In this document: piece by piece, positions 3,403 through 20,000 of the stretch
Layout: each line of letters opens with the position of its first letter
Position numbering within the stretch: position 1 is the first letter of the stretch
Source of the DNA: an uncultured virus (IMG/VR IMGVR_UViG_3300010885_086743)
Taxonomy: Duplodnaviria; Heunggongvirae; Uroviricota; Caudoviricetes
Strand: one strand, 5' to 3'
DNA: 20,000 nt
Virus record (IMG/VR): IMGVR_UViG_3300010885_086743
The notes under the pieces: generated by a model
Told to the model about the DNA's origin: nothing
What the model saw: only the letters and a program-made list of their open reading frames with translations
Databases searched by the model: none
Translations under genes and position numbers: made by a program

Positions 3403-3403
3403 T

Positions 3404-5075: not shown

Positions 5076-5842
5076 AAGAAAATTACAAAGATATAAAAAT
5101 ATTAGTAATTGGTGATTCGTGTGTTGATATTTTCACATACGGAGACACACTTAGGTTGGCTCCTGAAGGCCCAGCTCCTGTATTCAATCCTTTAAACAGC
5201 AAAAGCAATGGAGGTATGGCACTAAATGTTTCTAATAATATCTCTGCAATTGGTGCTTTCAATACTCTAATAACACAAAGTCAAGAAATTACTAAAACAA
5301 GATACATTGATGAGCGCACAAATACACTATTACTTCGTATAGATGCAAATGACAAGACAGCACAAATATCTAATGAATTATTGAAAAATATTACAAATAA
5401 TTCTCATGAAAATGTTTGTTATGACGCTATTGTAATTAGTGATTATTGCAAAGGTTTTTTATCTGAAGAAGATATTGAATTTATTGCTTCAAATAATTCC
5501 AATGTATTTTTAGACACAAAAAAAATCCTAGGCGAATGGTGCAAATCAGTGACATTCATAAAAATAAATCATACAGAATTCGATCGGACTAAACATACTA
5601 TTGATGCATTAGGTTTATATGAAAAAATGATCATTACAAGATCAGATGAAGGTTGTGAATATAATAGCGTAATTTATCCTGTAGAAAAAGTCAACATAAA
5701 AGATGTTTCGGGTGCAGGAGATACATTTGTTTCTGGATTAGTTTGTGAATTTATTAGAACTAAGGATATTATTCTTGCAATAAAATTTGCTCAAGAATGT
5801 GCCACAAAAGTAGTTCAAAAGAAGGGAGTTTGTACTATATGA
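5072..5842 (+). CDS. PfkB-family sugar kinase, HldE/RfaE domain I (heptose-7-phosphate kinase)-like
   Basis: 'ILVIGDSCVD...G...RLAPEGPAPV', 'GGMALNV', 'VISDYCKG', 'DVSGAGDTF'; ATGA overlap with rmlC. Confidence 0.85.
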   Translation: MKENYKDIKILVIGDSCVDIFTYGDTLRLAPEGPAPVFNPLNSKSNGGMALNVSNNISAIGAFNTLITQSQEITKTRYIDERTNTLLLRIDANDKTAQISNELLKNITNNSHENVCYDAIVISDYCKGFLSEEDIEFIASNNSNVFLDTKKILGEWCKSVTFIKINHTEFDRTKHTIDALGLYEKMIITRSDEGCEYNSVIYPVEKVNIKDVSGAGDTFVSGLVCEFIRTKDIILAIKFAQECATKVVQKKGVCTI

Positions 5843-6129
5843 ATATGAAAGAATATTATGAAATGTATCTAACTTTGCACCAAAATAAAGTGTGCAGAAG
5901 ATTACATGTTTTGGGTCAATTTATGACTATCGCCTGGGTAGTAGGTTGTTTCTATTTTGGATTTTATTGGTTTCTTATATTGACACCATTTATTGTTTAC
6001 CCATTTGCTTGGTCAGGACATTATTTCTTTGAGAAAAATCAACCAGCTGCATTCAAGGATCCTTTAAAGGCTAAAATTAGTGATTGGATTATGTTGTCGG
6101 ATATTCTAAGAGGAAAAGTTCCATTCTAA
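5839..6129 (+). CDS. DUF962 / Mpo1-like small membrane protein
   Basis: 'YLTLHQNKVCRRLHVLG', hydrophobic hairpin, 'AWSGHYFFEKNQPA'. ATG at 5839 overlaps the kinase TGA and follows a GAAGGGAG SD-like sequence at 5821-5828. Confidence 0.8.
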   Translation: MNMKEYYEMYLTLHQNKVCRRLHVLGQFMTIAWVVGCFYFGFYWFLILTPFIVYPFAWSGHYFFEKNQPAAFKDPLKAKISDWIMLSDILRGKVPF

Positions 6130-6156: not shown

Positions 6157-7251
6157 TTATGCTAATTTCCTATACCATTCAATAACTTTATTTCTCAAAG
6201 TCCAAGAATTTTCAGAACTTATATTTCTGCCTATATTCCAAATATTTACAATTCTGGTCAAATGAATATAAAAAAGTTCTTCTTCAGAATAAATGCTCGC
6301 AAATCCTTGAAAATCATTATTAAATTCCGAAATTCTATTTTTCCAAAAATAAGGAATATATTCTTTAGAAAAATAAAAATCATATCCCTTTTCATCAAAA
6401 ATTTTCAATTTATCGTAAGTTGGATTGATATTAGTAAAATTTTGTCTATACGAACAAGAGTAATTTATCTTAATATTATTTTCAAAAAATCCATCAGGAA
6501 TTTCTAAAACTGGCAACACTTCATTAGGAAGATACTGCCAAATTGTATGTTGATATCCATCAAAATGGCGAGCTATTTCTCTATAGGGAGTTATAATTGT
6601 TGATTTTGAAAACCAACTAAATAAATCTAATGCTGGAGTGCTGATACCATCAGCTCTTGGGAAAGCTACATCTGGTAATTTGTGTTCCACCCACCAGTGA
6701 TGATAAGTTTTTCTGTTGATTACTTGAATAGAATCACAACACTTTCCCTTTGATTTAATATGGTCTTCTAAAAATTGAAAATTTCCAGAATTATCGAATG
6801 AACTGTAGCAATGCTCAGGCCAATGTGAAAATTGTATTCCTAAATAATCATCATAATTTCTGTATTGTTCTACGATATTCTTGAAATAAGTTGGATCAGG
6901 ATCAATAAAAACATGATCATGATTACAAGAAAACAATATTAAATCATCATCTAAAAGATCATAATCTTTCTTCCATTCTGATTGATATTCATTTCTATAT
7001 TCTCTTACAATCAAAGGATACTTATCAAAACAATTATTAATAAATTCATGAAGTTCTTGTTTGCGGTGAAAGTAAACAGTGTCAAGTTTTACGTTAATAA
7101 TTACTTTTTTCCAAGAATAAAAATCAGACAAACTTGACAACATATATTTAAAAACATCAACTTTATCTGAATATTTTGCGTTCTGTCTAACGACATTTCC
7201 TTGAGTTTTAAATTTTTCTTCAGTTAAAAAAACATTTAAGAATAAAATCAT
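6157..7251 (-). CDS. Hypothetical protein (364 aa), possible divergent GT-A glycosyltransferase
   Basis: Long ORF coupled to the upstream HAD gene by an ATGA overlap. 'DLILFSCNHDHVFID' resembles a beta-strand plus DxD-type metal motif, with a late 'RHFDGY' His. The CDS is solid; the function is a guess. Confidence 0.55.
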   Translation of the reverse strand: MILFLNVFLTEEKFKTQGNVVRQNAKYSDKVDVFKYMLSSLSDFYSWKKVIINVKLDTVYFHRKQELHEFINNCFDKYPLIVREYRNEYQSEWKKDYDLLDDDLILFSCNHDHVFIDPDPTYFKNIVEQYRNYDDYLGIQFSHWPEHCYSSFDNSGNFQFLEDHIKSKGKCCDSIQVINRKTYHHWWVEHKLPDVAFPRADGISTPALDLFSWFSKSTIITPYREIARHFDGYQHTIWQYLPNEVLPVLEIPDGFFENNIKINYSCSYRQNFTNINPTYDKLKIFDEKGYDFYFSKEYIPYFWKNRISEFNNDFQGFASIYSEEELFYIHLTRIVNIWNIGRNISSENSWTLRNKVIEWYRKLA

Positions 7252-7610
7252 AATATTTCTATATCCTTAATTCCAACATTTCTATCAGGGGAAATGCAAA
7301 AGCAAGCTACTTCACCATCAGGTTTTTTATCATTTATTAAGTATCTTGGACCTCCACCAATTCCCATGATGAGTAAATCATAAAATATACCAACCTCTGA
7401 TAATTGCTTTTCAGTAGCTTTACGCATACTTTCTTTTCTGCCAGTAGTCAATATTATTCTAAAACCGTTTTTTTCCCACTCCATTAATTTTTCAAGAGTT
7501 CCAGGCAAGAGCTCAAGAGAGTGGCTTGGTCTGCAGCTTGTTGATGGTGGTTCATGTTTAACCAATGTTCCATCAATATCACAAAAAATTGTTGGTTTAG
7601 ACGATATCAA
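7248..7610 (-). CDS. Small HAD-superfamily phosphatase
   Basis: Motif I 'FCDIDGTL', motif II 'LTTGR', C-terminal 'INDK'. TTG start preceded by AGGTG (SD-like) inside the upstream gene. Confidence 0.8.
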   Translation of the reverse strand: MISSKPTIFCDIDGTLVKHEPPSTSCRPSHSLELLPGTLEKLMEWEKNGFRIILTTGRKESMRKATEKQLSEVGIFYDLLIMGIGGGPRYLINDKKPDGEVACFCISPDRNVGIKDIEIL

Positions 7611-8553
7611 TTAGTTCACCTAGTTTTTTATTTATTTTATTATAGATGAAAGATTCATCTATTTCATCTAATATTTCATTTACAAAAACTTCATTCGAGT
7701 AAACATAATGACCACTTATTTTTATAAGTTCAGACTTATTGTTTATTGGATCAAATTCTGGACCAACCCAGTTTTTCCATTTTCCAGAATCAAAACATAA
7801 TTTATAAAATAATTCAAATTTTTCTTCACTAATACAATCTAATATAGAACATGTTTGCAAATATCCAAATTCTGGCGCAATGTTTATACAATCTAACCCC
7901 AAATCAAATTTTTGTTTGATTATTCTAGTATCAATGTAATCACCATTATGTTCTTTGCTAAATTTATCAAACTTTTTGACAATATTTATTTGATTTACAA
8001 GACGTTCAGAAGAATAATTACCAATTTGATTATTTCCTTTCAATTTTGTCCCTGATTGAATTACTATATGAGAAATTTTATCAAATATAAGACCTAATTC
8101 TTTGTGAACAGAATCTATAAAATGTTCAAGTGTTTTTTCATCAAAATAAAAAATAGATTCTTCAGTAGCTATTTCATAAGATAAATTTTTATTTATATTA
8201 TGACAAAACTTTATGTAATCAGTAGTTAAAATGATAGCTTCTTGTATGCTTTTAGTGTATTTGAATGGATCAATTTGAATCATATCAAAATGCAAAGCAT
8301 CTGATTCCAAGCTCGCATACCCATCATCAGGGAATGCTCCTTGCATAGCACCAGCATGATCTCTACATATAGTGAATTCTGGTTTTGTGTCTTTTACATA
8401 TGATGCAAAAGATTCAGTTGACCAATTATTTACATAGCCACTTTTATAGTCCACTTGTCTTCTACTAGGTATAAATCCAAATAAAGCAGGGTTTTGCTTT
8501 AATAGACAATCAACAATTTGCTTACTCATAGGTCCAACAAAAAATTTAATCAT
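7597..8553 (-). CDS. GatZ/KbaZ-like (tagatose-6-phosphate epimerase / class II aldolase-like) TIM-barrel protein
   Basis: 'SRRQVD...GY', 'RDHAG', 'YEIATEE', 'VIQSGT', 'KEHNGDY' and 'NIAPEFG' parallel GatZ/KbaZ motifs (NQV..GGY, DHLG, GTE, VQPG, HSTDY, KVGP). Confidence 0.6.
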   Translation of the reverse strand: MIKFFVGPMSKQIVDCLLKQNPALFGFIPSRRQVDYKSGYVNNWSTESFASYVKDTKPEFTICRDHAGAMQGAFPDDGYASLESDALHFDMIQIDPFKYTKSIQEAIILTTDYIKFCHNINKNLSYEIATEESIFYFDEKTLEHFIDSVHKELGLIFDKISHIVIQSGTKLKGNNQIGNYSSERLVNQINIVKKFDKFSKEHNGDYIDTRIIKQKFDLGLDCINIAPEFGYLQTCSILDCISEEKFELFYKLCFDSGKWKNWVGPEFDPINNKSELIKISGHYVYSNEVFVNEILDEIDESFIYNKINKKLGELIDIV

Positions 8554-10081
8554 CCATACCTCGCAAATTCATAAATAAATTGTATTTTCCAAAATTAAAC
8601 AAAAAATTACTTAATGGATATTCATGCAATGGAGACATATTTAGCCAAATCAAACATGTTAAAATTTTTATCTTTTTTAAGTCAAAATTATTATCGACAA
8701 TCCATTTGTGATATTGTTTTTGACATTGCTTGTTCATAAATGGAACTAATATATCTAATTTTATTTGATCTTTGCCAACGTAATCTATGTTGAACAGTTG
8801 AGAATCTAAAACTCTATGATTCAAAGTTAAACTATGATTCAATTTTGCTAAATCATAATAAATATCTCCGCATTCAACAGTACCTTGAAAGTCTTGTCTC
8901 CAATCTATAAGTTTGAATTTATTACCATCAAAGAGAATATTATCTAGAATAAAATCACCATGAAACCTAACTGGAATACCGTTTGCTAAATATTCAAAAT
9001 CAATTTCTTTCAGTAAATCCGATACTTTTGGAATTTTCAAATCATTGATATAAATACTGTCATCAGGAAAATGTACGCAAAATTTATTAATTCTTTCAAT
9101 TGTTTTATGATAGTAAAAATCTAAACACAAAGAATTAAAATTTTCAAATTCAACATTTTTCCATAAGTCATCTTTGCTCCATGATAAAAGTTTTTCAAAA
9201 TTTTCTGTACTTATAACTGAAGCGTATAAATTGGATTCTACTATTTTATATTTGTAAAAATTTTCTGTATGAGCGACAATTTTTGGAACAATATCTTCCA
9301 TGTCTTTTGCTCTTTGAACTCTATTTTTTACAATTATTGGATTACTAAAAAATTTAATTACAAAATCATCAAAAAAATAAATTGATTCTTCAGGCTTATC
9401 TAAAACATGATATTTTGAATGAAAGTGTTTACGTGTGCTGTGAAGTTCTCCATTGTTTCCAATATCAAACCATTCATTAACTTCTACCACGTCAAACTTT
9501 GATTCAGAAGACATGATATTTAAGACATCAACTTCAGTCAAGTCTGCAAAATTTTTATTTAGGTAGTTTCCTAAAAGATTAAAAAATTTCTTATAATCTT
9601 TAACACCACATATACCACAATAAGCAAGATCATATTCTATCTCACCCTTGTCATATATTCTGCTGCTTGAATTTCTCAAGGTGCGATATTGTGAAACATT
9701 GTCTTTTTTACTGCCAATGATAAAATTATTATTGTAAATCTTTAAATCTTTGATAATTGAATCACAAGCATGATAAATAAAAGGTCCATTGATTTTATCC
9801 TTGCATTTATATATGGAATACCCTAAAGAACTACCCTCGCCTTCATATACATCAACTTCAACAAAGGTAATTTTTTTATCAGGGTACGCTAAAGATAAAA
9901 ATTGTTTTACATGATCTCCGTAATGACCTAGTGTGATAACAAAATTAGTATCATTTGGATAAGATTCTATAATATGAGAAATAGCAGGTTTATCATCAAC
10001 TCTCACCAAGCATTTATTCGTATGCTTGGTGAGATCTCCTAATCTTGATCCAATACCACTAGTTGTTATTACGACGTTCAT
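8546..10081 (-). CDS. Fusion: sugar-phosphate nucleotidyltransferase + APH/choline-kinase-like phosphotransferase
   Basis: N-terminal 'ITTSGIGSRL...TKHTNKCLV' NTP-transferase signature and 'WFDIG'; C-terminal kinase motifs 'FHGDFILDNI', 'LIDW' and 'GDIYYDLAKL'. Confidence 0.85.
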   Translation of the reverse strand: MNVVITTSGIGSRLGDLTKHTNKCLVRVDDKPAISHIIESYPNDTNFVITLGHYGDHVKQFLSLAYPDKKITFVEVDVYEGEGSSLGYSIYKCKDKINGPFIYHACDSIIKDLKIYNNNFIIGSKKDNVSQYRTLRNSSSRIYDKGEIEYDLAYCGICGVKDYKKFFNLLGNYLNKNFADLTEVDVLNIMSSESKFDVVEVNEWFDIGNNGELHSTRKHFHSKYHVLDKPEESIYFFDDFVIKFFSNPIIVKNRVQRAKDMEDIVPKIVAHTENFYKYKIVESNLYASVISTENFEKLLSWSKDDLWKNVEFENFNSLCLDFYYHKTIERINKFCVHFPDDSIYINDLKIPKVSDLLKEIDFEYLANGIPVRFHGDFILDNILFDGNKFKLIDWRQDFQGTVECGDIYYDLAKLNHSLTLNHRVLDSQLFNIDYVGKDQIKLDILVPFMNKQCQKQYHKWIVDNNFDLKKIKILTCLIWLNMSPLHEYPLSNFLFNFGKYNLFMNLRGMDD

Positions 10082-10811
10082 TTGCTAGTCTCAATTCTTC
10101 ATTGAACCAATCTTGCTCTTTTTTATAAATTTCATCATAATTATTGACAGGATTGCATTGTTCAATAATTGTATTTTTATCTCCCAATACAGCATACGAT
10201 CTTTTAACAAGTAATGAAACACCCACATTGTAATCACCACTACCAAATGGAAAATCTACAACATCAAATGTTCCATCAAAAAATTTAGTCCTAAGATCAA
10301 TATTAAATTCTCTAGAACCATCAATTTTTGCAGTGTCATGAAAAGCAATTATGCCTGTTTCACTTAAATTTTTATATACAGCATTGAAATCATTTAGCAC
10401 ACCATCATAAGAATGACAACCATCAATAAAAGCAAAATCAATTTTTGGATGTTTAGTTTTGATTAGCTTATGAAATTCTGGAGTTTTAGTATTGATTGTA
10501 GTAAACTCAAAATTAGTAAATCCAGCAGAAGTCAAATATTGTGCACTTTTTTCTTTTGTAGAAGAAGCAGGAAATTGATTATTTACACCATGTATATCCC
10601 AAAGATCGTATCCATAAACTATGCCACCATTGATTTGAGCAGCTTGACATAATAATTTAGTAGTCCGAGCAGTAGACACTCCAATCTCTAGAATAGTTTT
10701 ACATTTGTTTAAAATAATCAACCCTTGAAATAAAGTTCCATGTTCAAAAGAAAACTTTTCTTGCCAGTCGTTTCCTTGTCTAACTTTCATGTAATTATTC
10801 ATATCTATCAT
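10059..10811 (-). CDS. Class I SAM-dependent methyltransferase (Methyltransf_24-like)
   Basis: 'ILEIGV', 'VYGYDLW', 'DFAFIDGCHSYDGV..D', 'GIIAFHD'. Confidence 0.85.
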   Translation of the reverse strand: MIDMNNYMKVRQGNDWQEKFSFEHGTLFQGLIILNKCKTILEIGVSTARTTKLLCQAAQINGGIVYGYDLWDIHGVNNQFPASSTKEKSAQYLTSAGFTNFEFTTINTKTPEFHKLIKTKHPKIDFAFIDGCHSYDGVLNDFNAVYKNLSETGIIAFHDTAKIDGSREFNIDLRTKFFDGTFDVVDFPFGSGDYNVGVSLLVKRSYAVLGDKNTIIEQCNPVNNYDEIYKKEQDWFNEELRLANERRNNN

Positions 10812-10817
10812 AATGCT

Positions 10818-11162
10818 TTATAACCTTTTGTAATCATCTTCATGTCGAACAATGTCATCTTCGCCAAAATAAGTGCCAAGTTGAACTTCAATAAATATTA
10901 AGTCAATATCACTTACACATCTAACTTGATGTTTTTGTTGAAAATCAACATTTACAATATCGCCTTTAGTGTAAGTGGTATCAACTCCATCTAAAGTTAT
11001 TTTAGCTTCACCTTGAATTATCGTATATCGTTCACATCGAAATTGATGGGATTGATAACTGGGAGCTTGTCCAGGTTTAATTGTAATAATTTTTACTTTG
11101 CAGTCATCTCGTTCTAAAAGATTTTTAAAAAATCCCCAAGGCCTTGTTTCACTATAGTTCAT
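10818..11162 (-). CDS. Stand-alone cupin, type II phosphomannose isomerase C-terminal domain-like
   Basis: 'RPWG', 'SYQSH..R.E', 'H', 'IEVQLGTYFGEDDIVR.EDDY'. Confidence 0.88.
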   Translation of the reverse strand: MNYSETRPWGFFKNLLERDDCKVKIITIKPGQAPSYQSHQFRCERYTIIQGEAKITLDGVDTTYTKGDIVNVDFQQKHQVRCVSDIDLIFIEVQLGTYFGEDDIVRHEDDYKRL

Positions 11163-11188: not shown

Positions 11189-11962
11189 CTAAATATTGTA
11201 GCCTTTTTGATATAGCAAATCGAATTGTTGTAGTTCAATAGGTAAATCTGACTGAGCAAATTCAGGATACAAAAATTCTAAATCACTTTTTAAAATATCA
11301 TATTTGCCAACATTGCTATAGAAAGTATATCCTTGACCACAATAATGGATGAAGTTAGATTGATACCTTAAAAGATTTGGATCAGGCACACCCATATCAC
11401 CACGATTCCAATACCAATCAAGATTCTTGAATGGCATATTGAATTTGGCAATCATCGCATTTAAGCATGTTTGATCAGTCATAGGTAGATGACCAGTGAT
11501 GCTATCTATTTCTCTGAACTTTCCTAATTGATCTTGATGATGTTTGGAAAAAAGCAAAATTCCTGAATTGAAATATCTAAGTTTTCTATTCCATTCCTTT
11601 GGCCAAATTATAAATTGATTATCAAAACAATTTATAATTTCTCTAACCAATGGATCTCTGTTATTTTGTCCTGTGAAACCGCTTTCATGAAATCCATAAA
11701 ATGGTACAGGATCAGTGTAAACTTCAAAAATATTTGGAGCTTGAGGAGTAATTAACACATCACCATCAATATATAAAACTCTGTCATAATCATTCAATAA
11801 ATCAACTGCAATAAACTTTTCAAAGCCTAAGTCTCTCCATCCAATTTTGTTTTCAGTGATGACATGCAAATCTAAATTGTATTTTTCACAATATCTTTCA
11901 TGAATAGGCAATGAGTGTCTAGGACAATCTCCAATAAAAGTGGTTATTACTAAATTTTTCAT
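11189..11962 (-). CDS. Glycosyltransferase, GT8-like (GT-A fold)
   Basis: 'FEK', DxD motif 'VLYIDGDVLI', 'YFNSGILLF', 'DQTCLN', 'WN', 'FIHY'. Confidence 0.8.
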   Translation of the reverse strand: MKNLVITTFIGDCPRHSLPIHERYCEKYNLDLHVITENKIGWRDLGFEKFIAVDLLNDYDRVLYIDGDVLITPQAPNIFEVYTDPVPFYGFHESGFTGQNNRDPLVREIINCFDNQFIIWPKEWNRKLRYFNSGILLFSKHHQDQLGKFREIDSITGHLPMTDQTCLNAMIAKFNMPFKNLDWYWNRGDMGVPDPNLLRYQSNFIHYCGQGYTFYSNVGKYDILKSDLEFLYPEFAQSDLPIELQQFDLLYQKGYNI

Positions 11963-12687
11963 AGTTTATCTTTATGAACAAAAATGTAGTCGGTTGTGTA
12001 TGTATTTACTTGGACATAACCTAAACTACTCAGGTGTTGACGGACTAAACTTGGAGTATGACCATAGCGATTGAGCCAAGGTTCACAAAGTTCAACAACA
12101 ATAACAGGTTTATATTTATTAATAGTCTCATTACTTCCATAAAGAGCATTTAATTCTGAACCTTCTATATCTAATTGAATCATGTCGCAATGTGGCAAAT
12201 TCATATCATCAATTCTAATTAAGGGAACATATCCTGAATAATTTTTAGAAACATTTCCACCCAATGATCCAGAGTCTAAATCTATTTCTATTGTTCCAGA
12301 TTCTTTTCCAACAAAATTTCCACCAATATCATTAGGATCAAGGTTTAGGAAAATGCTTGTTCTTTTTTCTCCTAAACAAGCTTGCAATTTTATGACATTT
12401 TTATATGGTAAATTATTTACTAAACAATGAAAACTTTTTGGGTCTGGTTCAAAAGTATATACACTTTGAAAATATAAAGCAAACTTTTCAACTTGCAAGC
12501 CACAATTTCCACCAGCCTGTATCATGATTCTATTGCCATTTAGATAAGGCTTTACTAATTCTAATAATTCTGTTTCTTGACTTAAGACATTATAAGTAGT
12601 GAAATCTTTATCGTCAGTTCTCCAAAATACTTCTTTGTCATTCTCGTCTTTTATCAAACATATCAAATCAATAAATTTATTTTGCAT
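11959..12687 (-). CDS. FkbM-family methyltransferase
   Basis: 'IQAGGNCG', 'VYTFEPD', 'RIDD', 'DMIQLDIEGSELNALYG...I..YKPVIVVE'. Confidence 0.88.
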   Translation of the reverse strand: MQNKFIDLICLIKDENDKEVFWRTDDKDFTTYNVLSQETELLELVKPYLNGNRIMIQAGGNCGLQVEKFALYFQSVYTFEPDPKSFHCLVNNLPYKNVIKLQACLGEKRTSIFLNLDPNDIGGNFVGKESGTIEIDLDSGSLGGNVSKNYSGYVPLIRIDDMNLPHCDMIQLDIEGSELNALYGSNETINKYKPVIVVELCEPWLNRYGHTPSLVRQHLSSLGYVQVNTYTTDYIFVHKDKL

Positions 12688-13576
12688 TTTTTATACCTTC
12701 AATCGTTTTAAGTAAACCGTTAGATAAACTATGAATTTCTTTCCAATCAGTAGTTTTTACAAGTTTTGAATTATCGCCACAAAAATATTTTTGAAATCCT
12801 AATCTATCTCTGCTTGCATCAAAAGAAATTTCACCAGCAAAATTACATAAACTGGCAATATTTTCAACTATATTTTTTATTTTGTATGTTTTGCCCGAGG
12901 ATATAATGATTTTTCCAAGTACATTTTTGTCAATTATTTCATTTATACCAAAAACAAAATCTTTAACATACAAGTAATCAACAAGGGAATCACAGCTATC
13001 TAAAGTGAAATTTTCATTCTTCAAGCACAAACTAATAACTTTAGGAATTAATCTTGTTTTGATATCATTTTGACCATAAACATAAACAGGATATACCCAG
13101 TTAAAATCAATTTTGTTAGTTTCACAAATATGTTTTGCTAAATCATAAAAATATTTTTTGCTAGAACCATACAAACTATAAGGATTTTTGATTGCATCTT
13201 CATTAACTGGAAAATTGTGAAAACCAAATTCTGCAGCAGAGCCTATTCCAATAAATTTTGTAATATTGCTCTTTTTGATGATTTCTAATAATCTTAATCC
13301 AGCTACAATATTTTCAAATTGAATTATAGAATTTGTGTCATTGAAATTGTTGCCACCAATCCAAGCACAATGTATGAGCAAATCAGGTTTGAAATCTAAT
13401 ATTGTATTTTCAAAATCATCAATATTTGCAAGATCATATTTTACAAACTGAACATTTTCGTTGATATTTATATTTTCACATTTTCTGGAAAATGCTAATA
13501 TCTTGTGATTTTTAGATAAACTGTTGCAAATGTTAGACCCAAGAAATCCTCCAGCGCCAGTGATGATTATGTTCAT
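12677..13576 (-). CDS. NAD-dependent epimerase/dehydratase/reductase (extended SDR)
   Basis: 'ITGAGGFLG' Rossmann motif, 'IHCAW', 'GSAAEFG', YxxxK 'YGSSK', 'DYLYVKD'; similar in style to 3,6-dideoxyhexose 4-reductases. Confidence 0.88.
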   Translation of the reverse strand: MNIIITGAGGFLGSNICNSLSKNHKILAFSRKCENININENVQFVKYDLANIDDFENTILDFKPDLLIHCAWIGGNNFNDTNSIIQFENIVAGLRLLEIIKKSNITKFIGIGSAAEFGFHNFPVNEDAIKNPYSLYGSSKKYFYDLAKHICETNKIDFNWVYPVYVYGQNDIKTRLIPKVISLCLKNENFTLDSCDSLVDYLYVKDFVFGINEIIDKNVLGKIIISSGKTYKIKNIVENIASLCNFAGEISFDASRDRLGFQKYFCGDNSKLVKTTDWKEIHSLSNGLLKTIEGIKNAK

Positions 13577-13956
13577 AAATTCTTTAGTGCTTCAATAGAT
13601 GATAAAAATTCTTTTTCATCAAAGCATATAGCTTTATCATCAATGTAAAAATCAGCTACAACTTTTGGGCTTGGACCTGACAATTTTTTGGTGCCTTTAA
13701 TATTTTCATTAATGGAATCAAATTCCAATCCTTGTTTTTTGCACCAATTTGTTGCTTGAGATAAACAAGGATATTCAGCATTGTCTCCTCTGCAAGTCCA
13801 TAAAATTAATTTATGACCTTTAGATCTCATTTGAATCAATAATTCTAATAGTTCTTTATGATGTTGTTTTTGCTCACCAATTTCAGGAAAAGCATATTCA
13901 CATAAAGTGCCATCAAAATCCACAGCAATTACATAGCTATCTTTCTTTTTCATCAT
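13573..13956 (-). CDS. Small HAD-superfamily hydrolase
   Basis: 'IAVDFDGTL', 'ILWTCR', 'FDSINEN', 'KVVADFYIDDK'. Confidence 0.85.
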   Translation of the reverse strand: MMKKKDSYVIAVDFDGTLCEYAFPEIGEQKQHHKELLELLIQMRSKGHKLILWTCRGDNAEYPCLSQATNWCKKQGLEFDSINENIKGTKKLSGPSPKVVADFYIDDKAICFDEKEFLSSIEALKNL

Positions 13957-15109
13957 ATTTCCTATTGTTTAATTCAACTAAATTCTTTGATACTAAGTAA
14001 GCTGATTCGATAAGTTTATGATTTTCGTAAAAATCTTTTTCAACAATAAACTTTTCAATTAAGTCTCTAGCATATGTACCAATAGAAACACCATTTATTC
14101 TTACACCTGATAAATTGGCTAATTCTTTGGAATGTGAATTAGTTCCACCAGAAATTAATAAAGGAATGACATCATTACTGGTCAAAGATTTGTAGATTTT
14201 TTTAGAAGATATTTTTTCTTTTCCAAGTTCATCTATCTCTCTTTTTTTATTGAGCTTCATATTGAATTTCTTATTAACAACATCGGCACAAGCTACAGCT
14301 TGTAAAGTTGTATTGAAATCATCTTCTCCACCACTCATAGGATAACCATCAGCTTGAATCATAATTTTATCTTTTGCTATTTGTTTAGCTTGAGATACTC
14401 TATGTTCTAATTTTAGATTTCCCAGATTTAATCTATCTAAACACATTGAATTATAATTATTGCTATTGATATCACAAATTAATTGCCACTCTTTCAATGT
14501 GATGTCATCTTCACCTACAGCAGCATGTAATTCGAACAATTCTGCACCAGCTTCTAAACATTTTGGCAATAATATGTTTAATTCTCTGAAGCTATGTCTA
14601 TACGAAATAATGTCATCTTTGGGACAAATATTGCTGCATTTACCACACCCTATACACAAGTCCTTAATTACAATTTCTTTTGAACTATCAGGATGATCAA
14701 ATGAACCATTCAAAGTTTTGAAAATATCTAATTCTTTGACAAAATTTTTGGGTATAGCATCTGTAGGACATACTGGTATGCACAAAGTACATCCTATGCA
14801 CTTATTAGGATCTATATAAGATTTTCTAACGTGATGGTCTCCTGGCATCCCTATACTAACCATAATATATGGTCTGACATCAATTGTTGTTTTTAAATTT
14901 GCGCAATATGAATAAGCTAAATCTATACCTTCCATTGCTGCTTGAACAACTTTGACATTAGCAGAAACGTCCAAAATTTTAGCGCCAGCAAGGGTATATA
15001 CAAAGGCAAGTTTCTTTACTTGAACTGTATCCTCATTACCGGCACCACAGATCATCTTGAAACAATTTTCATCTTCAAGTAAATTTTTTAACGTTTCATA
15101 TCTGTTCAT
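13937..15109 (-). CDS. ldpA: LdpA-family 2x[4Fe-4S] protein
   Basis: 'FKMICGA', 'VYTLAGA..LDV.A', 'MVS....DHHVRK', two CxxCxxCxxxCP motifs (CIGCTLCIPVCP; CIGCGKCSNICP), 'ELH', 'QADGYPMSG', 'SGGTN' and 'G..IGTYAR' match in order the conserved blocks I recall for cyanobacterial LdpA. Confidence 0.8.
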   Translation of the reverse strand: MNRYETLKNLLEDENCFKMICGAGNEDTVQVKKLAFVYTLAGAKILDVSANVKVVQAAMEGIDLAYSYCANLKTTIDVRPYIMVSIGMPGDHHVRKSYIDPNKCIGCTLCIPVCPTDAIPKNFVKELDIFKTLNGSFDHPDSSKEIVIKDLCIGCGKCSNICPKDDIISYRHSFRELNILLPKCLEAGAELFELHAAVGEDDITLKEWQLICDINSNNYNSMCLDRLNLGNLKLEHRVSQAKQIAKDKIMIQADGYPMSGGEDDFNTTLQAVACADVVNKKFNMKLNKKREIDELGKEKISSKKIYKSLTSNDVIPLLISGGTNSHSKELANLSGVRINGVSIGTYARDLIEKFIVEKDFYENHKLIESAYLVSKNLVELNNRKYDEKER

Positions 15110-15852
15110 TATTTTCTCGAACTTAATAATTTGATTCTTCTCAAATAATCTTCGCTAAGATCTGAGCTAACTTGTAATTTATTTTTTAAAAGAAGAATTT
15201 CAAAATCTATTGATTCTTGTATAGCTAAATTGATCTCATCAACATTCTTGTCATTTAGTTCAATGACAACATTTCTTGTTTCAACCCTATTTATCAAATC
15301 TAACTCATACATTTCTTTTATGAATTCTGAACTTTTGATGCTTACATTTCCACCCAAAGTTGTAAGTAAATTGTATTTTTTAGCTTTTGTAAAAACATCT
15401 TTGACAATAGAGTAAATGAAATCACTATCTGTTTCGATTTTATTTAGGTCGTAAGATTTAGTTAAGTCTGATCTTCCTACAATTACACCAGTTAATTTTT
15501 CATGAGCTGTTTCTAAAATTTCATCAATATTCATGTATGATGTTTTTGATTCAACAACGATGTAATATTCAGACCTTTCATCATAGCAATCCATAAATTT
15601 AGAAACTGCAAAAGATGACTCAACCATTGGAGCAATAATTCCATTAACTCCTAATTTTAAGCAATTATATATGTCCGTGTTAGCTTCGCAGCCCCCAACT
15701 TTCACAAATGACATCAAATTGCATAATTCTGTTATTCTTCTAACAGAAATAACATCTTCTAATAAAGCGCCTTCATCTTCAAAAGATTGTTTAATTCCTA
15801 TTACGCCATGTTTTTCTGATATGTATTTAAGTTTTAACAATAATTCATTCAT
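15109..15852 (-). CDS. HpcH/HpaI aldolase / citrate lyase family protein
   Basis: 'KQSFEDEGA', 'VKVGGCEA', 'GIIAPMVES', 'VES', 'VGRSDL..S'. Confidence 0.75.
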   Translation of the reverse strand: MNELLLKLKYISEKHGVIGIKQSFEDEGALLEDVISVRRITELCNLMSFVKVGGCEANTDIYNCLKLGVNGIIAPMVESSFAVSKFMDCYDERSEYYIVVESKTSYMNIDEILETAHEKLTGVIVGRSDLTKSYDLNKIETDSDFIYSIVKDVFTKAKKYNLLTTLGGNVSIKSSEFIKEMYELDLINRVETRNVVIELNDKNVDEINLAIQESIDFEILLLKNKLQVSSDLSEDYLRRIKLLSSRK

Positions 15853-16532
15853 AAATCAACTCTCTTGATGCCATCTGTGATAAAATTTGTATCCATTCCC
15901 CATATAAGTAATTCAGGCTTGTTATCTAAAGAAATCGTTTTCATGTTTTCAAAAGTGGGCAAAAATAATCCCAATTTACTCAACGGAATTTTATCGTAAA
16001 TTATTTCCATATAATTTTTAAATGTTTTATTTTCGAAATTTCCTGGAAATGTCAATGAACTAGATAAATCATATGGTCCTATAATATAATAATCAAATGG
16101 CACTTGTAATAGCGAACTTAAATTTTCTACAGAATTTGCAGTTTCTATTTGAGCAATAATTAGTGGCTTCTTAGAAGCTAATGGTAATTTTCCCCACTTA
16201 TTTTCTCTGACTAAACCACATCCTCTAACTCCATTATTTACTGGATAATTACAATAAGAAATGATTCTATATCCTATTGATTCATCTTCAATTGTAGAAA
16301 AAATCAACCCATCTACACTAGCATCTAAACACATTCTTATAAGTTGTTTGTTAAAATCAGTCAATCTAACAAAGCATTTTTTATCCAAATTTGTAATAAC
16401 TTGAATGCAGCTATACAAAGATTCATTATTGAAACATCCATGTTCAGTATCAAGAACTACACCATCAAATTTGGAATCTGCTAATATTTCTGATATGATA
16501 GTTGAAGGTATGGTTTGCAAAGTCAAGTTCAT
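15849..16532 (-). CDS. HpcH/HpaI class II pyruvate aldolase
   Basis: 'FDGVVLDTEHG', 'VRL', 'YP...GVRG', 'AQIET', 'IGPYDLSSSL'. Confidence 0.88.
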   Translation of the reverse strand: MNLTLQTIPSTIISEILADSKFDGVVLDTEHGCFNNESLYSCIQVITNLDKKCFVRLTDFNKQLIRMCLDASVDGLIFSTIEDESIGYRIISYCNYPVNNGVRGCGLVRENKWGKLPLASKKPLIIAQIETANSVENLSSLLQVPFDYYIIGPYDLSSSLTFPGNFENKTFKNYMEIIYDKIPLSKLGLFLPTFENMKTISLDNKPELLIWGMDTNFITDGIKRVDL

Positions 16533-18322
16533 AGTCTAATCTCGTAAGATAATTTTTTCACTTCAACCATAGATTTTTCCAATACCTCAATAGGCAATAA
16601 CGGAGACATTTCTTCTAATGGAGGAGCAAGTAAACCACCATTAGTCATTATACCTTTTACTTTTGGTACCAAATCTTGTTCAGGGTTCATAAAACACTCA
16701 AGAACGGCAGGACCAGAAAAACTTAAGAACTCATCAAAATTGTTCTTTTTAGTATTGAAATATTCAAAACCAAATGCTGTTGAAACTTTTTCAAAGTTTG
16801 GCAAAGACATTCCAGTTTCAGAATCAACACCTGTATATCTACCTTCAAATAACATTTTTTGAGTATGCTTGATAAATAAATATCCAGAATTGTTGAATAT
16901 TACAATTTTTAAAGGAATTTTATATCCTATGACAGTTTGAAATTCCTGAATATTCATCATAGAACTTCCATCGCCATCAAAAAGAATTATTGGTCTAGAA
17001 ATATCAGATAAAGCAGCACCTATGGCAGATGGCAAACCATTACCCATTTCGCCTAAACCGTTTGAAGCAAAAATTGTTTGATTACTACTGTGAATTAATG
17101 CTTGATGACAACATGGCAAAGGAGAACCTTGACCTATTACAATTATATGATTGTCTTCAAGTTTTTTAGAAATTTCATTAATTAGTACATATGAATTGTC
17201 GAAGTTTTTATTGTCTTCCAAATGACATTCTTCAACTAAAGGAAAATCTTCTCTATAACGATTACATTTGATTACCCAATTTTCTTTATATGAATCAAAT
17301 ATTTTTTCATTCATTCGATCAATGAAATATTTACAATCACAATAAATTTTCATATCATATCTTGAATATTTATTGAGTTCTAATTCATCATTATTAACCA
17401 TGATTATTTTAGCATTAGGAGCAAAATTATCAATGTTATATCCTGTCTGAGGTAATGCCAATCTGCTTCCTATGACAATTAATAAATCACAATTCTGAAT
17501 TATAAAATTAGCTGCTCTTTGTCCATAAATGCCAGGACATCCATAATTAAAATCATCATCTGAAGAAACTATATCAATTGCAGACCATGAATGAACTACA
17601 GGTATTTTAAGATTATTCATCAATTCATGGAAAGATTCAATTGATTTCGAAAGTCTTATCCCATGTCCAGCTAAAATTACAGGTCTTTCAGAAGACTCAA
17701 TCATTTTACTAATTTGATCAAAATTAATTTCTTGAGAGTAATTTGCTGTTTCAGTATTTACAAAAGAGCTTAAACTTTCAATATCAATATTTGATGATTG
17801 TATATCCATGGGAATATCAATCCAAGTAGGGCCTGGACGATCACTCATAGCAACATGCAAAGATTCGTCTAGTGTGTATGATATTTTATTTGGATCTGTT
17901 AATAATGTTGCTTGTTTTGTAATTTTTTTAACAGAATTTATGATATCAAAACCTTGCGTACCATACATTCTTAAATCAGAATGTTCTATCAAATATTTAG
18001 TTGATTCTTGGCCTGATAAAACAATACAAGGAATCGAATCAGCCCAATTACAAACAACTCCTGTAATTGCATTAGCAGATCCAGCTCCAGCAGTAACAAT
18101 TGCAACAGAGATTTTTCCAGAAGCTCTGTAATATGCACCAGCTGCCATAACAGCAGATTGTTCATGATGCATAAAAATAACCTTGGTAAATCCTTTTCGT
18201 AAAATAGAATCAAATATATATGAATTTGCAGACCCGATTATTCCAAAAACAATAGAAATTTGATGTTTTTCAAGCCAATCTGCAATGAAATCTGATACTA
18301 AATAATTTTTACTAGTTGACAT
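16529..18322 (-). CDS. ThDP-dependent acetolactate-synthase-like enzyme (YerE-like carboligase)
   Basis: Catalytic Glu 'HHEQSA', 'TAGAGSANA', 'RPGPTWIDIPMDIQ', 'RPVILAGHG', ThDP motif 'GDGS...NNSGY'; lies directly downstream of rfbH. Confidence 0.88.
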   Translation of the reverse strand: MSTSKNYLVSDFIADWLEKHQISIVFGIIGSANSYIFDSILRKGFTKVIFMHHEQSAVMAAGAYYRASGKISVAIVTAGAGSANAITGVVCNWADSIPCIVLSGQESTKYLIEHSDLRMYGTQGFDIINSVKKITKQATLLTDPNKISYTLDESLHVAMSDRPGPTWIDIPMDIQSSNIDIESLSSFVNTETANYSQEINFDQISKMIESSERPVILAGHGIRLSKSIESFHELMNNLKIPVVHSWSAIDIVSSDDDFNYGCPGIYGQRAANFIIQNCDLLIVIGSRLALPQTGYNIDNFAPNAKIIMVNNDELELNKYSRYDMKIYCDCKYFIDRMNEKIFDSYKENWVIKCNRYREDFPLVEECHLEDNKNFDNSYVLINEISKKLEDNHIIVIGQGSPLPCCHQALIHSSNQTIFASNGLGEMGNGLPSAIGAALSDISRPIILFDGDGSSMMNIQEFQTVIGYKIPLKIVIFNNSGYLFIKHTQKMLFEGRYTGVDSETGMSLPNFEKVSTAFGFEYFNTKKNNFDEFLSFSGPAVLECFMNPEQDLVPKVKGIMTNGGLLAPPLEEMSPLLPIEVLEKSMVEVKKLSYEIRL

Positions 18323-18343: not shown

Positions 18344-19657
18344 TTATCTTGTGCTCATAAAGCTATCTAAAACTTCACCTATATAAGCAATTTGCTCTTC
18401 AGTAATGACTGGTGAAGTACCCAAGAAGAAAGTGTCTGTAGTTACTTTTTTAGCAACTGGAAAATCACTCAAATCCATGTCTTTTACAAGATGGCTATAA
18501 GCTGGCTGCATCAAAATGTTTCCTGCAAAATAAGGTCTTGTTTGAATTTTTTGAGATTCAAAGAATTGACAAATATCACTTCTCTTAAATGGTGAATTAT
18601 CTTTTACAGTAAGTGGGAAAGCAAACCAGTTGACATCTGAATTTTTTTGAGCCACAGGAAGAACAAAATGATCTTCGTACTTTGAAAAAACTTCAAAAAG
18701 CAATTTATGATTTCTTTGGCGCAATTTTTTGATTTCAGCAAGCTTATCTATTTGAGCTAATAACATAGAGGCTTGAACTTCTATTGGTTTTAAGTTATAG
18801 CCAATTTCCTCATAAACATATTTATGATCAAAAACTTCTCCTGGAATACTAGGAAGCCATTCAGAAAATCTTTGATTGCAAGCTCCACACTCTGTAATGT
18901 TTTGCTTACCAATACAAAAACAACCACGGCCCCAATCTCTAATAGAACGAATTACTCTTTCGAGATCTTCATCATTGCAAACAACTAATCCGCCTTCTCC
19001 ACAAGTAATATGATGAGCAGGGTAGAAAGAGCAAGAAGCCATAGTGCCGAAACTACCCAAAGGATGACCGTCGAATAATGACCCCAAAGCATCACAACAA
19101 TCCTCCAGCAATATTAATCCATAATGATCAATAATATCTAACAATCTGTACATATCAGGTGGATTTCCCAATACGTGAGCAAATGTTATAATTTTTATTT
19201 CTGGATCTGCTTGCAATGTAGCTTCAACATCATCAAGATTCAAATTTAAGCCATCTAAAGAAATATCTACAAATACAGGCTTAAATCCGCATTGAAAGAT
19301 TGGATTGATAGTAGTAGGGAAACCAGCAATCGGTGTTAATACTTTGGTTCCCTCAGGCAAATTTAGATATCTTTTTGATTTCAACGCAGACATCATCAAA
19401 AGATTACTACTGCTGCCAGAATTGGTCAATAAAGCATGATTTTTGCCAAATAATGAAGCTAATTTCTTTTCTGCTTTATATGCTTCTGCACCTAAAACTA
19501 ACCAACCATCTAATAATGTAGAGACTGATCTAACAATTTCAGTGTGATCAAAGTAAGGTCCAGCATAATGGACGTGGTCTTTGCCAGGTCTCCATTTTTT
19601 ATTAGGTTCGTTTTTAATAAAATCTTCAACTAATTTAAGCAATTCTTCTTTAGTCAT
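18344..19657 (-). CDS. rfbH: CDP-4-keto-6-deoxyglucose 3-dehydratase E1 (RfbH/DdhC/AscC)
   Basis: 'NSGSSSNLL', 'GFPTT.NP', 'EDCCDALGS', 'SFYPAHHITCGEGG' (His for Lys), Fe-S segment 'DWGRGCFC...C..C' and 'DHKY.Y..IGYNLK'. Confidence 0.92.
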   Translation of the reverse strand: MTKEELLKLVEDFIKNEPNKKWRPGKDHVHYAGPYFDHTEIVRSVSTLLDGWLVLGAEAYKAEKKLASLFGKNHALLTNSGSSSNLLMMSALKSKRYLNLPEGTKVLTPIAGFPTTINPIFQCGFKPVFVDISLDGLNLNLDDVEATLQADPEIKIITFAHVLGNPPDMYRLLDIIDHYGLILLEDCCDALGSLFDGHPLGSFGTMASCSFYPAHHITCGEGGLVVCNDEDLERVIRSIRDWGRGCFCIGKQNITECGACNQRFSEWLPSIPGEVFDHKYVYEEIGYNLKPIEVQASMLLAQIDKLAEIKKLRQRNHKLLFEVFSKYEDHFVLPVAQKNSDVNWFAFPLTVKDNSPFKRSDICQFFESQKIQTRPYFAGNILMQPAYSHLVKDMDLSDFPVAKKVTTDTFFLGTSPVITEEQIAYIGEVLDSFMSTR

Positions 19658-19733: not shown

Positions 19734-20000
19734 TTAGCTAACGGTAATTCTGGAAACTGCGTAGTCATTGATAAGAGCAAAACCGAGCTCTTCGTAAACA
19801 ACCCATCCGAGTCTAAGTCTCTTTGGATCGTCTGCAGGAAGAACAGTAATGTCTTGGCGAACTGGCATTGCACCAACAAATTGGGCAGGAGCGAGAACGT
19901 AGACACTGTTCTTAGGAACCATTGTTGAAACGTGGATGTCTGCGGAATAAATATGTCCGTAGAGACCAGTCATAAGAATATCTCTTTGAGTTGCCTCATC
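19734..20000 (-). CDS. C-terminus of a putative HK97-fold phage major capsid protein (5' part outside window)
   Basis: Frame is open to the window edge: DEATQRDILMTGLYGHIYSADIHVSTMVPKNSVYVLAPAQFVGAMPVRQDITVLPADDPKRLRLGWVVYEELGFALINDYAVSRITVS. The 'G.I....I.VS..VP...VY' segment and terminal 'GW...E..G....N..AV..I' pattern resemble HK97-fold capsid C-termini. GC is 116/260 over 19741-20000, and a strong terminator follows. Confidence 0.7.
   Translation of the reverse strand, partial: DEATQRDILMTGLYGHIYSADIHVSTMVPKNSVYVLAPAQFVGAMPVRQDITVLPADDPKRLRLGWVVYEELGFALINDYAVSRITVS

Follow-up and report, generated by a model that had tools for sequence, protein, structure and literature searches.

The stretch of DNA analysed here, hereinafter the window, comprises 20,000 nucleotides (nt) of an uncultured virus of the Caudoviricetes (IMG/VR record IMGVR_UViG_3300010885_086743). 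It carries a sugar operon whose genes all lie on the minus strand and mostly overlap. From a capsid gene inward, these encode RfbH, a thiamine diphosphate (ThDP)-dependent enzyme, two HpcH-like proteins (HpcHa and HpcHb), a homologue of the cyanobacterial protein LdpA, a HAD phosphatase, a short-chain dehydrogenase/reductase (SDR), an FkbM-family methyltransferase and a GT8 glycosyltransferase, beyond which follow further sugar genes. The LdpA-like protein, a product of 390 amino acids (aa), is the subject of this study; its open reading frame (ORF; 13937-15109, minus strand) begins with ATG and overlaps by 1 nt with the upstream HpcHb ORF (15109-15852) and by 20 nt with the downstream HAD ORF (13573-13956). 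For some two decades all that has been known of LdpA is its part as a redox-sensing input of the circadian clock, and its mode of action is called unresolved in the available text of a 2026 review (PMC13421787). An earlier note on this DNA, made from the letters alone, had argued that the context of the gene points to an enzymatic or electron-transfer role in sugar chemistry. Here we report that a large and diverse branch of the LdpA family is tied into biosynthetic modules with aldolase-type proteins and phosphatases, up to the point of gene fusion, and that the polar residues of the LdpA barrel are invariant family-wide, plants and algae included, making the chemistry of LdpA testable with defined partner enzymes.

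In Pfam scans the protein passes the cut-offs of both LdpA domains, LdpA_Fe-S-bd (PF25160; 41.0 bits against 27.6) and, narrowly, LdpA_C (PF12617; 24.9 bits against 22.2), while a match to DUF561 over residues 7-63 (16.8 bits) falls under the cut-off of 21.6. The NCBIfam model of the clock protein (CircClkLdpA, NF045992) aligns end to end, with residues 11-363 corresponding to model positions 9-330 of 360 (E = 2.3e-39); the score of 135.5 bits lies far beneath the equivalog cut-off of 450 bits, which in a control run was exceeded by Synechococcus elongatus only. Judged by these scores, the product is a member of the LdpA family, with a match far beyond chance, and not an orthologue of the clock protein. 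It displays two cluster motifs, C104-x2-C107-x2-C110-x3-C114-P and C152-x2-C155-x2-C158-x3-C162-P, which coincide with Pfam Fer4 matches at residues 98-119 and 147-168; many Fer4 families match the protein. The scans of the protein recovered no Fer2, FAD_binding_6 or NAD_binding_1 domain and no DNA-binding or signalling domain, and no Kai or CikA family was found with Pfam among the 24 window ORFs scanned (16 + 8). The features on which the earlier note had built, namely a full-length LdpA-like protein with two CxxCxxCxxxCP motifs, overlaps with an HpcH-like gene and a HAD gene, and no kai genes in the window, are all upheld by these results.

Sequence searches with the protein recovered 2864 proteins at E <= 1e-3, the best 120 of which are 64-93% identical to the query, and 339 representatives of 50% identity clusters at E <= 1e-10; the LdpA model is matched by all 76 diverse relatives that were compared with it. 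PHROGs holds no family for either the LdpA-like protein or HpcHb, and tblastn with the two proteins against 50,697 phage records gave no match for either. Sequence searches of solved structures with the LdpA-like protein returned ferredoxin-domain matches only, and hence no structure of an LdpA has been solved.

The AlphaFold2 model, computed from a 76-sequence alignment (A1), has a mean predicted local distance difference test score (pLDDT) of 94.7 and a predicted template modelling score of 0.92, and folds as a (beta/alpha)8 barrel that is interrupted behind strand 3 by a two-cluster ferredoxin domain. The insert, which bears both cysteine motifs, occupies about residues 98-170 (14600-14818), as seen concordantly in the sequence, the Fer4 matches and the model. 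Strands 7 and 8 (317-320 and 340-343 in the model) are associated with the conserved glycine-rich loops PLLISGGTN and NGVSIGTYAR (14066-14164). A beta-hairpin at about residues 284-306 (14192-14260; model strands 284-292 and 298-306) is confined to the closest relatives: P0001 and P0122 have it, and the remaining 12 rows compared do not.

The 76 aligned sequences take in members with strong canonical LdpA_C scores, including at least one plant and at least one alga. Across all of them K18, S85, D91, C114, C152, C158, E193, H195, Q252, G255, G321, G340 and G344 are invariant; a further set is kept in at least 90% of the sequences, namely G22, A41, G42, D47, H93, K96, C104, C107, C110, G154, C155, C162, D254, G322, N324 and R348. 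When mapped on the model, K18 falls on strand 1, D47 on strand 2, S85 on strand 3, D91, H93 and K96 directly after strand 3, E193 and H195 on strand 4, and Q252 and D254 on strand 6, with the SGGTN motif following strand 7 and a GxxxG(S/T) motif at strand 8. Going by the secondary structure of the model, the conserved polar residues would thus sit at the usual place of a barrel active site. Glycine-rich motifs at strands 7 and 8 form a generic phosphate-binding site in many barrels, both flavin-dependent and non-flavin, and the two loops of the LdpA-like protein would, by their position in the fold, form such a site.

Foldseek searches of the PDB with the model recovered class II fructose-bisphosphate aldolase, thiamin-phosphate synthase, tryptophan synthase alpha and XenA (E about 5e-6 to 7e-5, template modelling scores 0.33-0.61), XenA at E about 2.5e-5. 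A second fold search, made without Foldseek, placed 2-keto-3-deoxy-6-phosphogluconate (KDPG) aldolase first (Z = 17.7, root-mean-square deviation 2.8, 210 residues aligned), with hexulose-6-phosphate synthase (Z = 17.5), ribulose-phosphate epimerase (16.6), deoxyribose-phosphate aldolase (16.4), PseI (15.9) and NeuB (15.8) among the further matches; the best matches are non-flavin phosphate-binding barrels (Z of 16-17.7), and old yellow enzyme (15.6) and 2,4-dienoyl-CoA reductase (15.0) scored just slightly lower, a spread too narrow for assigning a sub-family. The TIM barrel anticipated in the earlier note is thus recovered by the model and by both fold searches. The same note had likened the stretches 'PLLISGG' (residues 316-322) and 'NGVSIGT' (residues 339-345) to the phosphate-binding motif of flavin mononucleotide (FMN)-dependent TIM barrels and suggested a flavin/Fe-S oxidoreductase. 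The protein does share with those oxidoreductases a barrel and a phosphate site at strands 7 and 8, a feature common to many non-flavin barrels. In scans of the separated barrel halves of five family members no FMN family matched at Pfam E <= 10; instead, DUF561 was recovered on four of the five N-terminal pieces and LdpA_C on all five C-terminal pieces, along with a few unrelated weak matches. FMN in the LdpA-like protein is accordingly neither supported nor excluded. Since DUF561 is detected on the barrel halves and passes its cut-off in two relatives, P0125 and the protein of locus L120, the barrel can be assigned by sequence to the DUF561/Ycf23 type. DUF561 itself has no assigned function in the literature found, as far as the available texts extend.

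The immediate partners of the LdpA-like protein are HpcHb and the HAD. HpcHb (15109-15852) is a diverged protein with a weak Pfam match to HpcH_HpaI (E = 1.3e-7). A profile of 37 rows compared with the PDB retrieved YfaU and HpaI at E of about 8e-6 and pyruvate kinase at 1.5e-4, and the model (pLDDT 94.4) finds 2-dehydro-3-deoxygalactarate aldolase, hydroxyketoacid aldolase and SbnG at Z of 17.5-17.6, pyruvate kinases at 17.0-17.3, malyl-CoA lyase at 16.4 and CitE at 16.3, with generic barrels at 13.4 or less. HpcHb keeps E101 and D129, which align with the stretch that holds the metal ligands of the superfamily and which presumably serve as such; in addition it has invariant residues of its own (K21, E25, E27, K51, E56, D60, E78, K85, R127, R193 and R239). 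Both the profile and the fold comparisons identify it as a member of the phosphoenolpyruvate (PEP)/pyruvate-domain superfamily, which unites HpcH/HpaI aldolases, pyruvate kinase and CitE, and it is predicted to be an enzyme. The HAD (13573-13956) is a small cap-less phosphatase of 127 aa with DFDGT and DD motifs; it matches phrog_1238 and, in NCBIfam, the BT0820-family HAD (E = 7e-23, 81 bits, under the cut-off of 165). A complex prediction for the LdpA-like protein (alignment A2) and HpcHb (A3) scored 0.00 against a mark of 0.32, and we base no conclusion on it. We also considered a phosphonate pathway, with HpcHb as a PEP mutase and the neighbouring ThDP enzymes, HMGL-like proteins and 2-hydroxyacid dehydrogenases as coupling enzymes. 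This was rejected, as no Pfam scan returned a PEP_mutase family and the fold comparison puts HpcHb among the HpcH aldolases, the pyruvate kinases and CitE.

To survey the gene neighbourhoods, metagenomes were scanned with a 14-row alignment (A2), and the best 80 of 547 matches were kept. In a set of 87 loci (L001 and L023-L108), the gene immediately upstream of the LdpA-like gene encodes an HpcHb homologue in 64 of the 71 testable cases and the gene immediately downstream a small HAD in 69 of 75; the two occur together in 57 of 63. The pooled set of 108 loci reduces to 95 distinct sequences once identical proteins are collapsed, and 35 of these have at least 4.5 kb on both sides. Within this long set the HAD is universal (35/35) and an aldolase-type gene, HpcH or HMGL, nearly so (34/35); ThDP enzymes (19/35), KdsB-like genes (7/35), either of these two (26/35), RfbH at 300 bits or more (10/35) and an FNR-like gene (1/35) are less frequent. 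Of the co-occurrences that the earlier note had proposed to survey, that with the aldolase-type gene is near-constant, and those with RfbH and the ThDP enzyme are real but partial. Together with the fusions described below, these counts show a recurrent link with sugar genes as opposed to a chance insertion. Neither outcome that the note named as refuting it, a lack of LdpA profile matches or of a recurrent association with sugar genes, has thus come about.

Six loci, scored as having neither a small HAD nor HpcHb, were all annotated (L076, L084, L091, L093, L099 and L106). In five of them (all but L099) a capped HAD_2 phosphatase directly follows the LdpA-like gene instead. L093 and L106 show the order HMGL-like, strong HpaI-like aldolase, LdpA-like, capped HAD_2 and KdsB-like; L084 has a cytidylyltransferase, HpcHb, a second cytidylyltransferase, the LdpA-like gene, HAD_2 and a PGDH-like dehydrogenase, with HpaI-like, FkbM and KdsB-like genes farther off; in L076 and L091 the LdpA-like gene is followed by HAD_2. 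In L099 neither partner occurs within the available sequence, and RuvC, a kinase and RuvA lie downstream. As HAD_2 proteins and HMGL- or HpaI-like aldolases stand in for the usual partners, the functions of the module are kept by genes that are not orthologous. In L001 and L079 two further genes come after the triad of HpcHb, LdpA-like and HAD genes, one for an HpaI-like aldolase and one for a KdsB-like cytidylyltransferase (270 bits in L001 and 273 bits in L079; cut-off 255). L001 is a contig from a Chloroflexota metagenome-assembled genome, on which these genes lie beside aconitase B and capsule-export genes (Bac_transf, CpsB, Wzz and Poly_export); the module thus looks to be present in a cellular polysaccharide locus as well, unless the contig is mis-binned. 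A second clade of the family, with proteins of about 320 aa, was probed with another alignment (A4), yielding 21 viral loci of which the four closest were annotated (L118, L119, L120 and L124). All four combine the LdpA-like gene with HAD_2, an HMGL-like and/or HpcH gene and a ThDP enzyme, adjoining genes for an RfbH-like DegT protein, a nucleotidyltransferase and an SDR.

Gene fusions tell a similar story. P0125 (468 aa) joins an LdpA-like protein to a C-terminal BT0820-type HAD, and in 19 protein clusters of 853-892 aa (P0272-P0290), two of which were re-scanned with Pfam, an N-terminal HMGL-like aldolase domain is combined with a C-terminal LdpA-like domain. The fusion partners are hence of the same protein kinds as the recurrent neighbours. 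Viral loci fetched with the HMGL-LdpA fusion protein matched in its HMGL part only and had no LdpA-like gene. For the middle region of these fusions, precomputed Pfam data list an MptE-like/DUF115 domain in P0284 only (29.6 bits on re-scanning, under the cut-off of 34.6), and an HMGL-MptE-like combination exists as a separate gene in L106. In L035 (6031-6786) and L042 (7140-7856) an FNR-like gene separates the LdpA-like gene from the HAD, and in L024 (11519-12241) such a gene directly follows the HAD. The protein of L024 combines FAD_binding_6 with NAD_binding_1 and lacks an Fe-S domain, and the other two were identified by their similarity to it. This flavoprotein is a candidate electron donor.

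To place the window protein within the family we used a tree of 93 rows (IQ-TREE quick search, with support from the Shimodaira-Hasegawa-like approximate likelihood ratio test, SH-aLRT). The tree is unrooted and most of its rows, the cyanobacterial ones among them, bear no taxon label. The window protein falls in a 20-row clade (SH-aLRT 96) that holds all sequences of known sugar-cluster context, the HMGL fusions among them. P0125, with its fused HAD, branches off immediately outside this clade, within the next one (21 rows, SH-aLRT 97). The proteins of about 320 aa form a 31-row clade (support 99), and six plant- or algal-type sequences belong to a separate 11-row clade (SH-aLRT 100). Given the missing root and labels, no donor can be named. 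Most of the clusters that the ESM Atlas lists near the query have Cyanobacteriota as their commonest known phylum, and one has Uroviricota, these labels resting on few records. The hint of a cyanobacterial host or gene donor seen by the earlier note does not find support, with the phage capsid closest to that of Bacillus phage G and the clade apart from plant and algal LdpA. Canonical-type LdpA homologues occur in plants and algae, such as P0227 from Musa acuminata (429 aa; LdpA_C 209 bits) and P0262 from Phaeothamnion confervicola (444 aa; 149 bits); the query alignment starts at about residue 50 of both, which leaves an N-terminal extension in each. The LdpA family has accordingly been retained in lineages that lack the Kai clock.

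The remaining genes of the operon specify the setting in which the LdpA-like protein would act. RfbH (18344-19657), also termed E1, is a CDP-6-deoxy-4-hexulose 3-dehydrase, scoring 436 bits with NF011936 (cut-off 423) and 322 bits against the Yersinia E1 structure (3bcx); in the latter alignment the AHH stretch and a series of cysteines are matched. HpcHa (15849-16532), which overlaps the ThDP enzyme gene, is a canonical HpaI-type class II pyruvate aldolase (HpcH_HpaI, E = 1.6e-10; TIGR02311 HpaI, E = 8.7e-20, under the equivalog cut-off). Its sequence holds LDTEHG, VR, QIET and GPYDL, which we take to be the catalytic motifs. Farther along are an SDR-type NAD-dependent reductase or epimerase (12677-13576; Pfam Epimerase, E = 1.6e-34), whose gene comes after the module in many loci, the FkbM-family methyltransferase (11959-12687; Pfam and NCBIfam) and the GT8 glycosyltransferase (11189-11962; Pfam). 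The ThDP enzyme (16529-18322) contains the three TPP domains of Pfam and is a YerE-like carboligase: its score with JanthE (8rph) is 488 bits and that with 5ahk 254 bits, whereas acetolactate synthase I of Escherichia coli (6lpi) gives 232 bits; JanthE is described as a YerE-like carboligase in the text available to us (PMC12188165).

This assemblage closely resembles the defined gene set from which acyl-branched sugars arise. According to the available portions of Steitz et al. 2022 (PMC9306805), which deals with erwiniose, caryophyllose and 'gastriose', this set comprises the E1 pathway to CDP-4-keto-3,6-dideoxyglucose, a YerE-like ThDP enzyme with gamma-hydroxy-alpha-keto acids as donors, a pyruvate aldolase that makes the donor acids (either the BphI-like ErwI or MMAR_2331 of the aldolase/citrate-lyase family), a BphJ-like aldehyde supplier (ErwJ), a reductase and sometimes a methyltransferase. 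ErwI is there an HMGL-type, BphI-like aldolase paired with the aldehyde dehydrogenase ErwJ. In the window operon, an E1, a YerE-like ThDP carboligase and a pyruvate aldolase are each present; indeed, the whole set is represented except for the BphJ-like enzyme, in place of which are found HpcHb, the LdpA-like protein and the HAD. By analogy with the published scheme (PMC9306805) the SDR is a candidate for the side-chain ketoreductase, in the role of YerF/ErwF.

We propose, with middling confidence, that the LdpA-like protein is a redox enzyme acting on a phosphorylated intermediate, and that it takes part in making the keto acid that forms the side chain of an acyl-branched 3,6-dideoxyhexose. 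The family membership, fold, conserved residues, synteny, fusions and neighbour identities on which this proposal is founded are direct observations, whereas redox catalysis, the phosphorylated substrate, the order of steps and the product are what we infer from them. The constant pairing with a phosphatase, drawn from non-orthologous HADs in different clades, and with aldolase-type enzymes, along with two kinds of fusion and an invariant barrel active site with a phosphate-binding motif, argues for an enzyme that works on a phosphate ester in series with pyruvate-type aldolases. That the eight cysteines are conserved, and that an FNR-type gene now and then lies close by, speaks for the involvement of electrons in the reaction. 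The glycine loops of strands 7 and 8 would hold the phosphate of a small phosphorylated intermediate, while the two [4Fe-4S] clusters of the ferredoxin insert would ferry single electrons between an outside donor, in some relatives probably the FNR-type flavoprotein, and the barrel active site. The reaction could be a reduction, a reductive dehydroxylation or the oxidation of a hydroxy acid. Together with its fixed associates, an aldolase-type protein (HpcHb here, HpaI-like or HMGL-like elsewhere) and a HAD that may strip off the phosphate handle afterwards, the LdpA-like protein would make or reshape the non-pyruvate half of a hydroxylated 2-oxo acid, the module thereby taking the place of the aldehyde-supplying dehydrogenase ErwJ/BphJ. 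In the window phage this acid would be the donor for the YerE-like carboligase, which would join it to the CDP-4-keto-3,6-dideoxyhexose made by RfbH and so yield an acyl-branched sugar similar in kind to erwiniose or caryophyllose; elsewhere the acid would instead be activated with CMP by a KdsB-like enzyme. That the downstream users differ in this manner suggests that the product of the module is a functionalised 2-oxo acid, or an aldehyde for making one. The gene order in L118-L120 of the 320-aa clade (LdpA-like, HAD, aldolase or aldolases, ThDP enzyme) is collinear with a sequence of making a phospho-aldehyde, dephosphorylating it, condensing it with pyruvate and attaching the result to the sugar. 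The order HpcHb, LdpA-like, HAD of the window clade would fit 'condense, tailor, dephosphorylate' equally well, and gene order does not distinguish the two.

In the gene set as given in the accessible text of PMC9306805 the module holds the same place as ErwJ/BphJ with ErwI/BphI, amid the E1 pathway, YerE-like enzyme, pyruvate aldolase, reductase and methyltransferase, and the BphI-BphJ complex and ErwI-ErwJ pair find a parallel in the fusion of a BphI-like, HMGL-type aldolase with LdpA in 19 clusters. The LdpA-like protein is nevertheless unrelated in sequence and fold to acylating aldehyde dehydrogenases and bears Fe-S clusters in lieu of NAD and CoA; as the module comes with a phosphatase, its precursor is probably a phosphate ester, unlike the acyl-CoA of ErwJ/BphJ. 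The pathway to 3-deoxy-D-manno-octulosonate (Kdo), with the aldol-type synthase KdsA, the HAD phosphatase KdsC and the cytidylyltransferase KdsB, is another parallel, since the module of L001, L079, L093 and L106 comes with genes for an HpaI-like aldolase, for a HAD phosphatase and for a KdsB-like enzyme. However, the aldolase is of the class II pyruvate type and not the PEP-using KdsA, the additional Fe-S barrel protein is without a Kdo counterpart, and the window has no KdsB-like gene. With LdpA of S. elongatus PCC 7942 (NF045992; PF25160 and PF12617) the window protein shares the end-to-end layout of a barrel half, a 2x[4Fe-4S] insert and a second barrel half, and the same invariant barrel residues and cysteines across the 76 sequences, canonical-type plant and algal members included. 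It differs in being phage-borne and part of a biosynthetic operon, in its enzyme-fused relatives, separate clade and want of clock genes nearby, and in the beta-hairpin and a long linker between the cluster motifs.

Several observations weigh against the proposed role of the protein and its module. The fold matches of the barrel are non-discriminating, with 50 listed families within Z of 15.0-17.7 and non-redox enzymes as the best among them. Both clusters are fully cysteine-ligated, so that the barrel would need a further redox-active group, for which a flavin, a metal or the substrate itself would be candidates; beyond the cluster-binding cysteines the sequence reveals no substrate, product or cofactor. 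The proposal does not account for the presence of two aldolase-type proteins. The loci were picked by similarity to the query and are mutually related and mostly viral, so that they cannot be counted as independent events. In nine of the long loci, out of 35, phmmer shows neither a ThDP nor a KdsB-like gene, though it can miss divergent genes: one of the nine, L026, has a weaker cytidylyltransferase gene (CTP_transf_3) that was found by Pfam and not by phmmer. An alternative is that the barrel is a non-redox enzyme with a sugar phosphate or a phospho-keto acid as its substrate, be it an isomerase, epimerase, aldolase or decarboxylase, with the Fe-S domain in a structural or regulatory capacity and the module still feeding the aldolase and ThDP steps. 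KDPG aldolase, hexulose-6-phosphate synthase, ribulose-phosphate epimerase and deoxyribose-phosphate aldolase head the fold matches, the strands bear invariant K, D, H and E residues of the sort that typically serve in acid-base chemistry or as metal ligands, and P0134, which lacks the first three cysteines of motif 1 and one of motif 2 and hence the cysteines of cluster 1, keeps the invariant barrel residues intact. We nonetheless consider a non-redox enzyme unlikely, as the eight cysteines are conserved in at least 90% of 76 diverse sequences, FNR-type reductase genes adjoin in three distinct loci, and the purified cyanobacterial LdpA is reported to contain redox-active [4Fe-4S] clusters in the available text of the review PMC13421787.

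A different role for electrons is suggested by RfbH, a genuine E1 by score. E1 requires a reductase, and no gene of the AscD type (Fer2 + FAD_binding_6 + NAD_binding_1) is present among the 24 scanned ORFs of the window; the LdpA-like protein might accordingly replace E3 (AscD, CDP-6-deoxy-delta-3,4-glucoseen reductase) by passing electrons to the [2Fe-2S]/pyridoxamine phosphate enzyme RfbH for C-3 deoxygenation of the CDP-hexose. Like E3, it is an Fe-S protein encoded near an E1 gene, with an FNR-like neighbour in some relatives, and the ferredoxin domain combined with FNR-like neighbours that lack an Fe-S domain (L024, L035 and L042, the last also with RfbH) would resemble a split E3. Yet the protein has no plant-type [2Fe-2S], FAD or NAD domain and possesses a conserved barrel active site, for which a pure electron carrier would have no need; 25 of the 35 long loci have no RfbH within 4.5 kb, against the near-constancy of HAD and aldolase-type genes; the KdsB-type loci L001, L079, L093 and L106 have the module without RfbH; and the fusions join HAD and HMGL domains and not E1. 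An E3 replacement is thus improbable as an explanation of the protein, and while a possible second role in phages with RfbH, it cannot be the general function of the family. Finally, the protein might be a non-catalytic redox sensor or regulator, tuning the sugar operon or the physiology of the host to redox state, in the manner of the only characterised family member, which the available text of PMC13421787 describes as a redox-sensing clock input. We regard this as highly improbable: the score falls far short of the orthologue cut-off and the clade is a separate one, neither Kai nor CikA is encoded in the window, the gene is translationally coupled to a biosynthetic operon through overlapping ORFs, relatives are fused to enzymes, and the protein itself has no DNA-binding or signalling domain.

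Whereas the fold and the family were known already, the biosynthetic context, the fusions and the family-wide conservation of an active site are new, and they make a testable case for LdpA proteins being enzymes, which the members of this family probably are. We are more doubtful of, and offer only tentatively, the extension that the entire family, including the clock-input protein and plastid homologues, are metabolic Fe-S TIM barrels acting on phosphorylated small molecules. If this were true, the effect of LdpA on the clock could be a by-product or readout of catalytic turnover, given the barrel residues shared by both clades, and the aldolase-LdpA-phosphatase module would be a first handle for finding the substrate of LdpA. 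The module also adds a previously unrecognised component to the published scheme for acyl-branched bacterial sugars. We found no paper on an LdpA-type protein in a sugar or glycan cluster or in a phage, part of the search being too broad to show absence.

The sugar operon of the window is phage-borne, as it adjoins a major head protein gene and its homologues lie on viral contigs. The 3' part of that gene (19734-20000, minus strand) matches the HK97-fold capsid family of NCBIfam (E = 5e-12) and phrog_2522 (E = 6e-20). On a related viral contig (L023) a full capsid gene of 284 aa (L023:4517-5371) directly precedes RfbH, and its product shares 48% identity with the major head protein of Bacillus phage G. 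A metagenome contig (L029) encodes an LdpA-like protein 100% identical to that of the window, homologues with 64-81% identity are found on six IMG/VR contigs of 32-106 kb, and the G+C content of the window is 27-36% throughout. The operon begins right beside the head protein gene; the genome of phage G is 498 kb, and related contigs reach 173 kb (L057) and 296 kb (L056). This points to large aquatic phages, related by their capsid to Bacillus phage G, that carry long glycan pathways of this kind beside their structural genes.

Apart from the operon, the window contains a second sugar-tailoring block on the opposite, plus strand (677-6129), which encodes a B12-binding radical S-adenosylmethionine enzyme (677-2224), a split pair resembling pyruvate dehydrogenase E1/transketolase (2261-2866 and 2866-3402), a DegT aminotransferase, an RmlC-like epimerase, a PfkB kinase and an Mpo1-like protein. 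The E1-like pair (2261-3402) is to our mind reminiscent of the enzymes that attach two-carbon branches in antibiotic sugar pathways. Between this block and the operon, a minus-strand block (6157-11162) includes a cupin of the mannose-6-phosphate isomerase C-terminal type, a Methyltransf_24 protein, a nucleotidyltransferase-kinase fusion of 511 aa, a second small HAD and two proteins of 318 and 364 aa without a Pfam family. Parts of it recur alongside the HpcHb-LdpA-HAD triad in L024, L081 and L082. L023 is missing all 9 genes that separate the HAD from the Mpo1-like gene, and the region is therefore modular.

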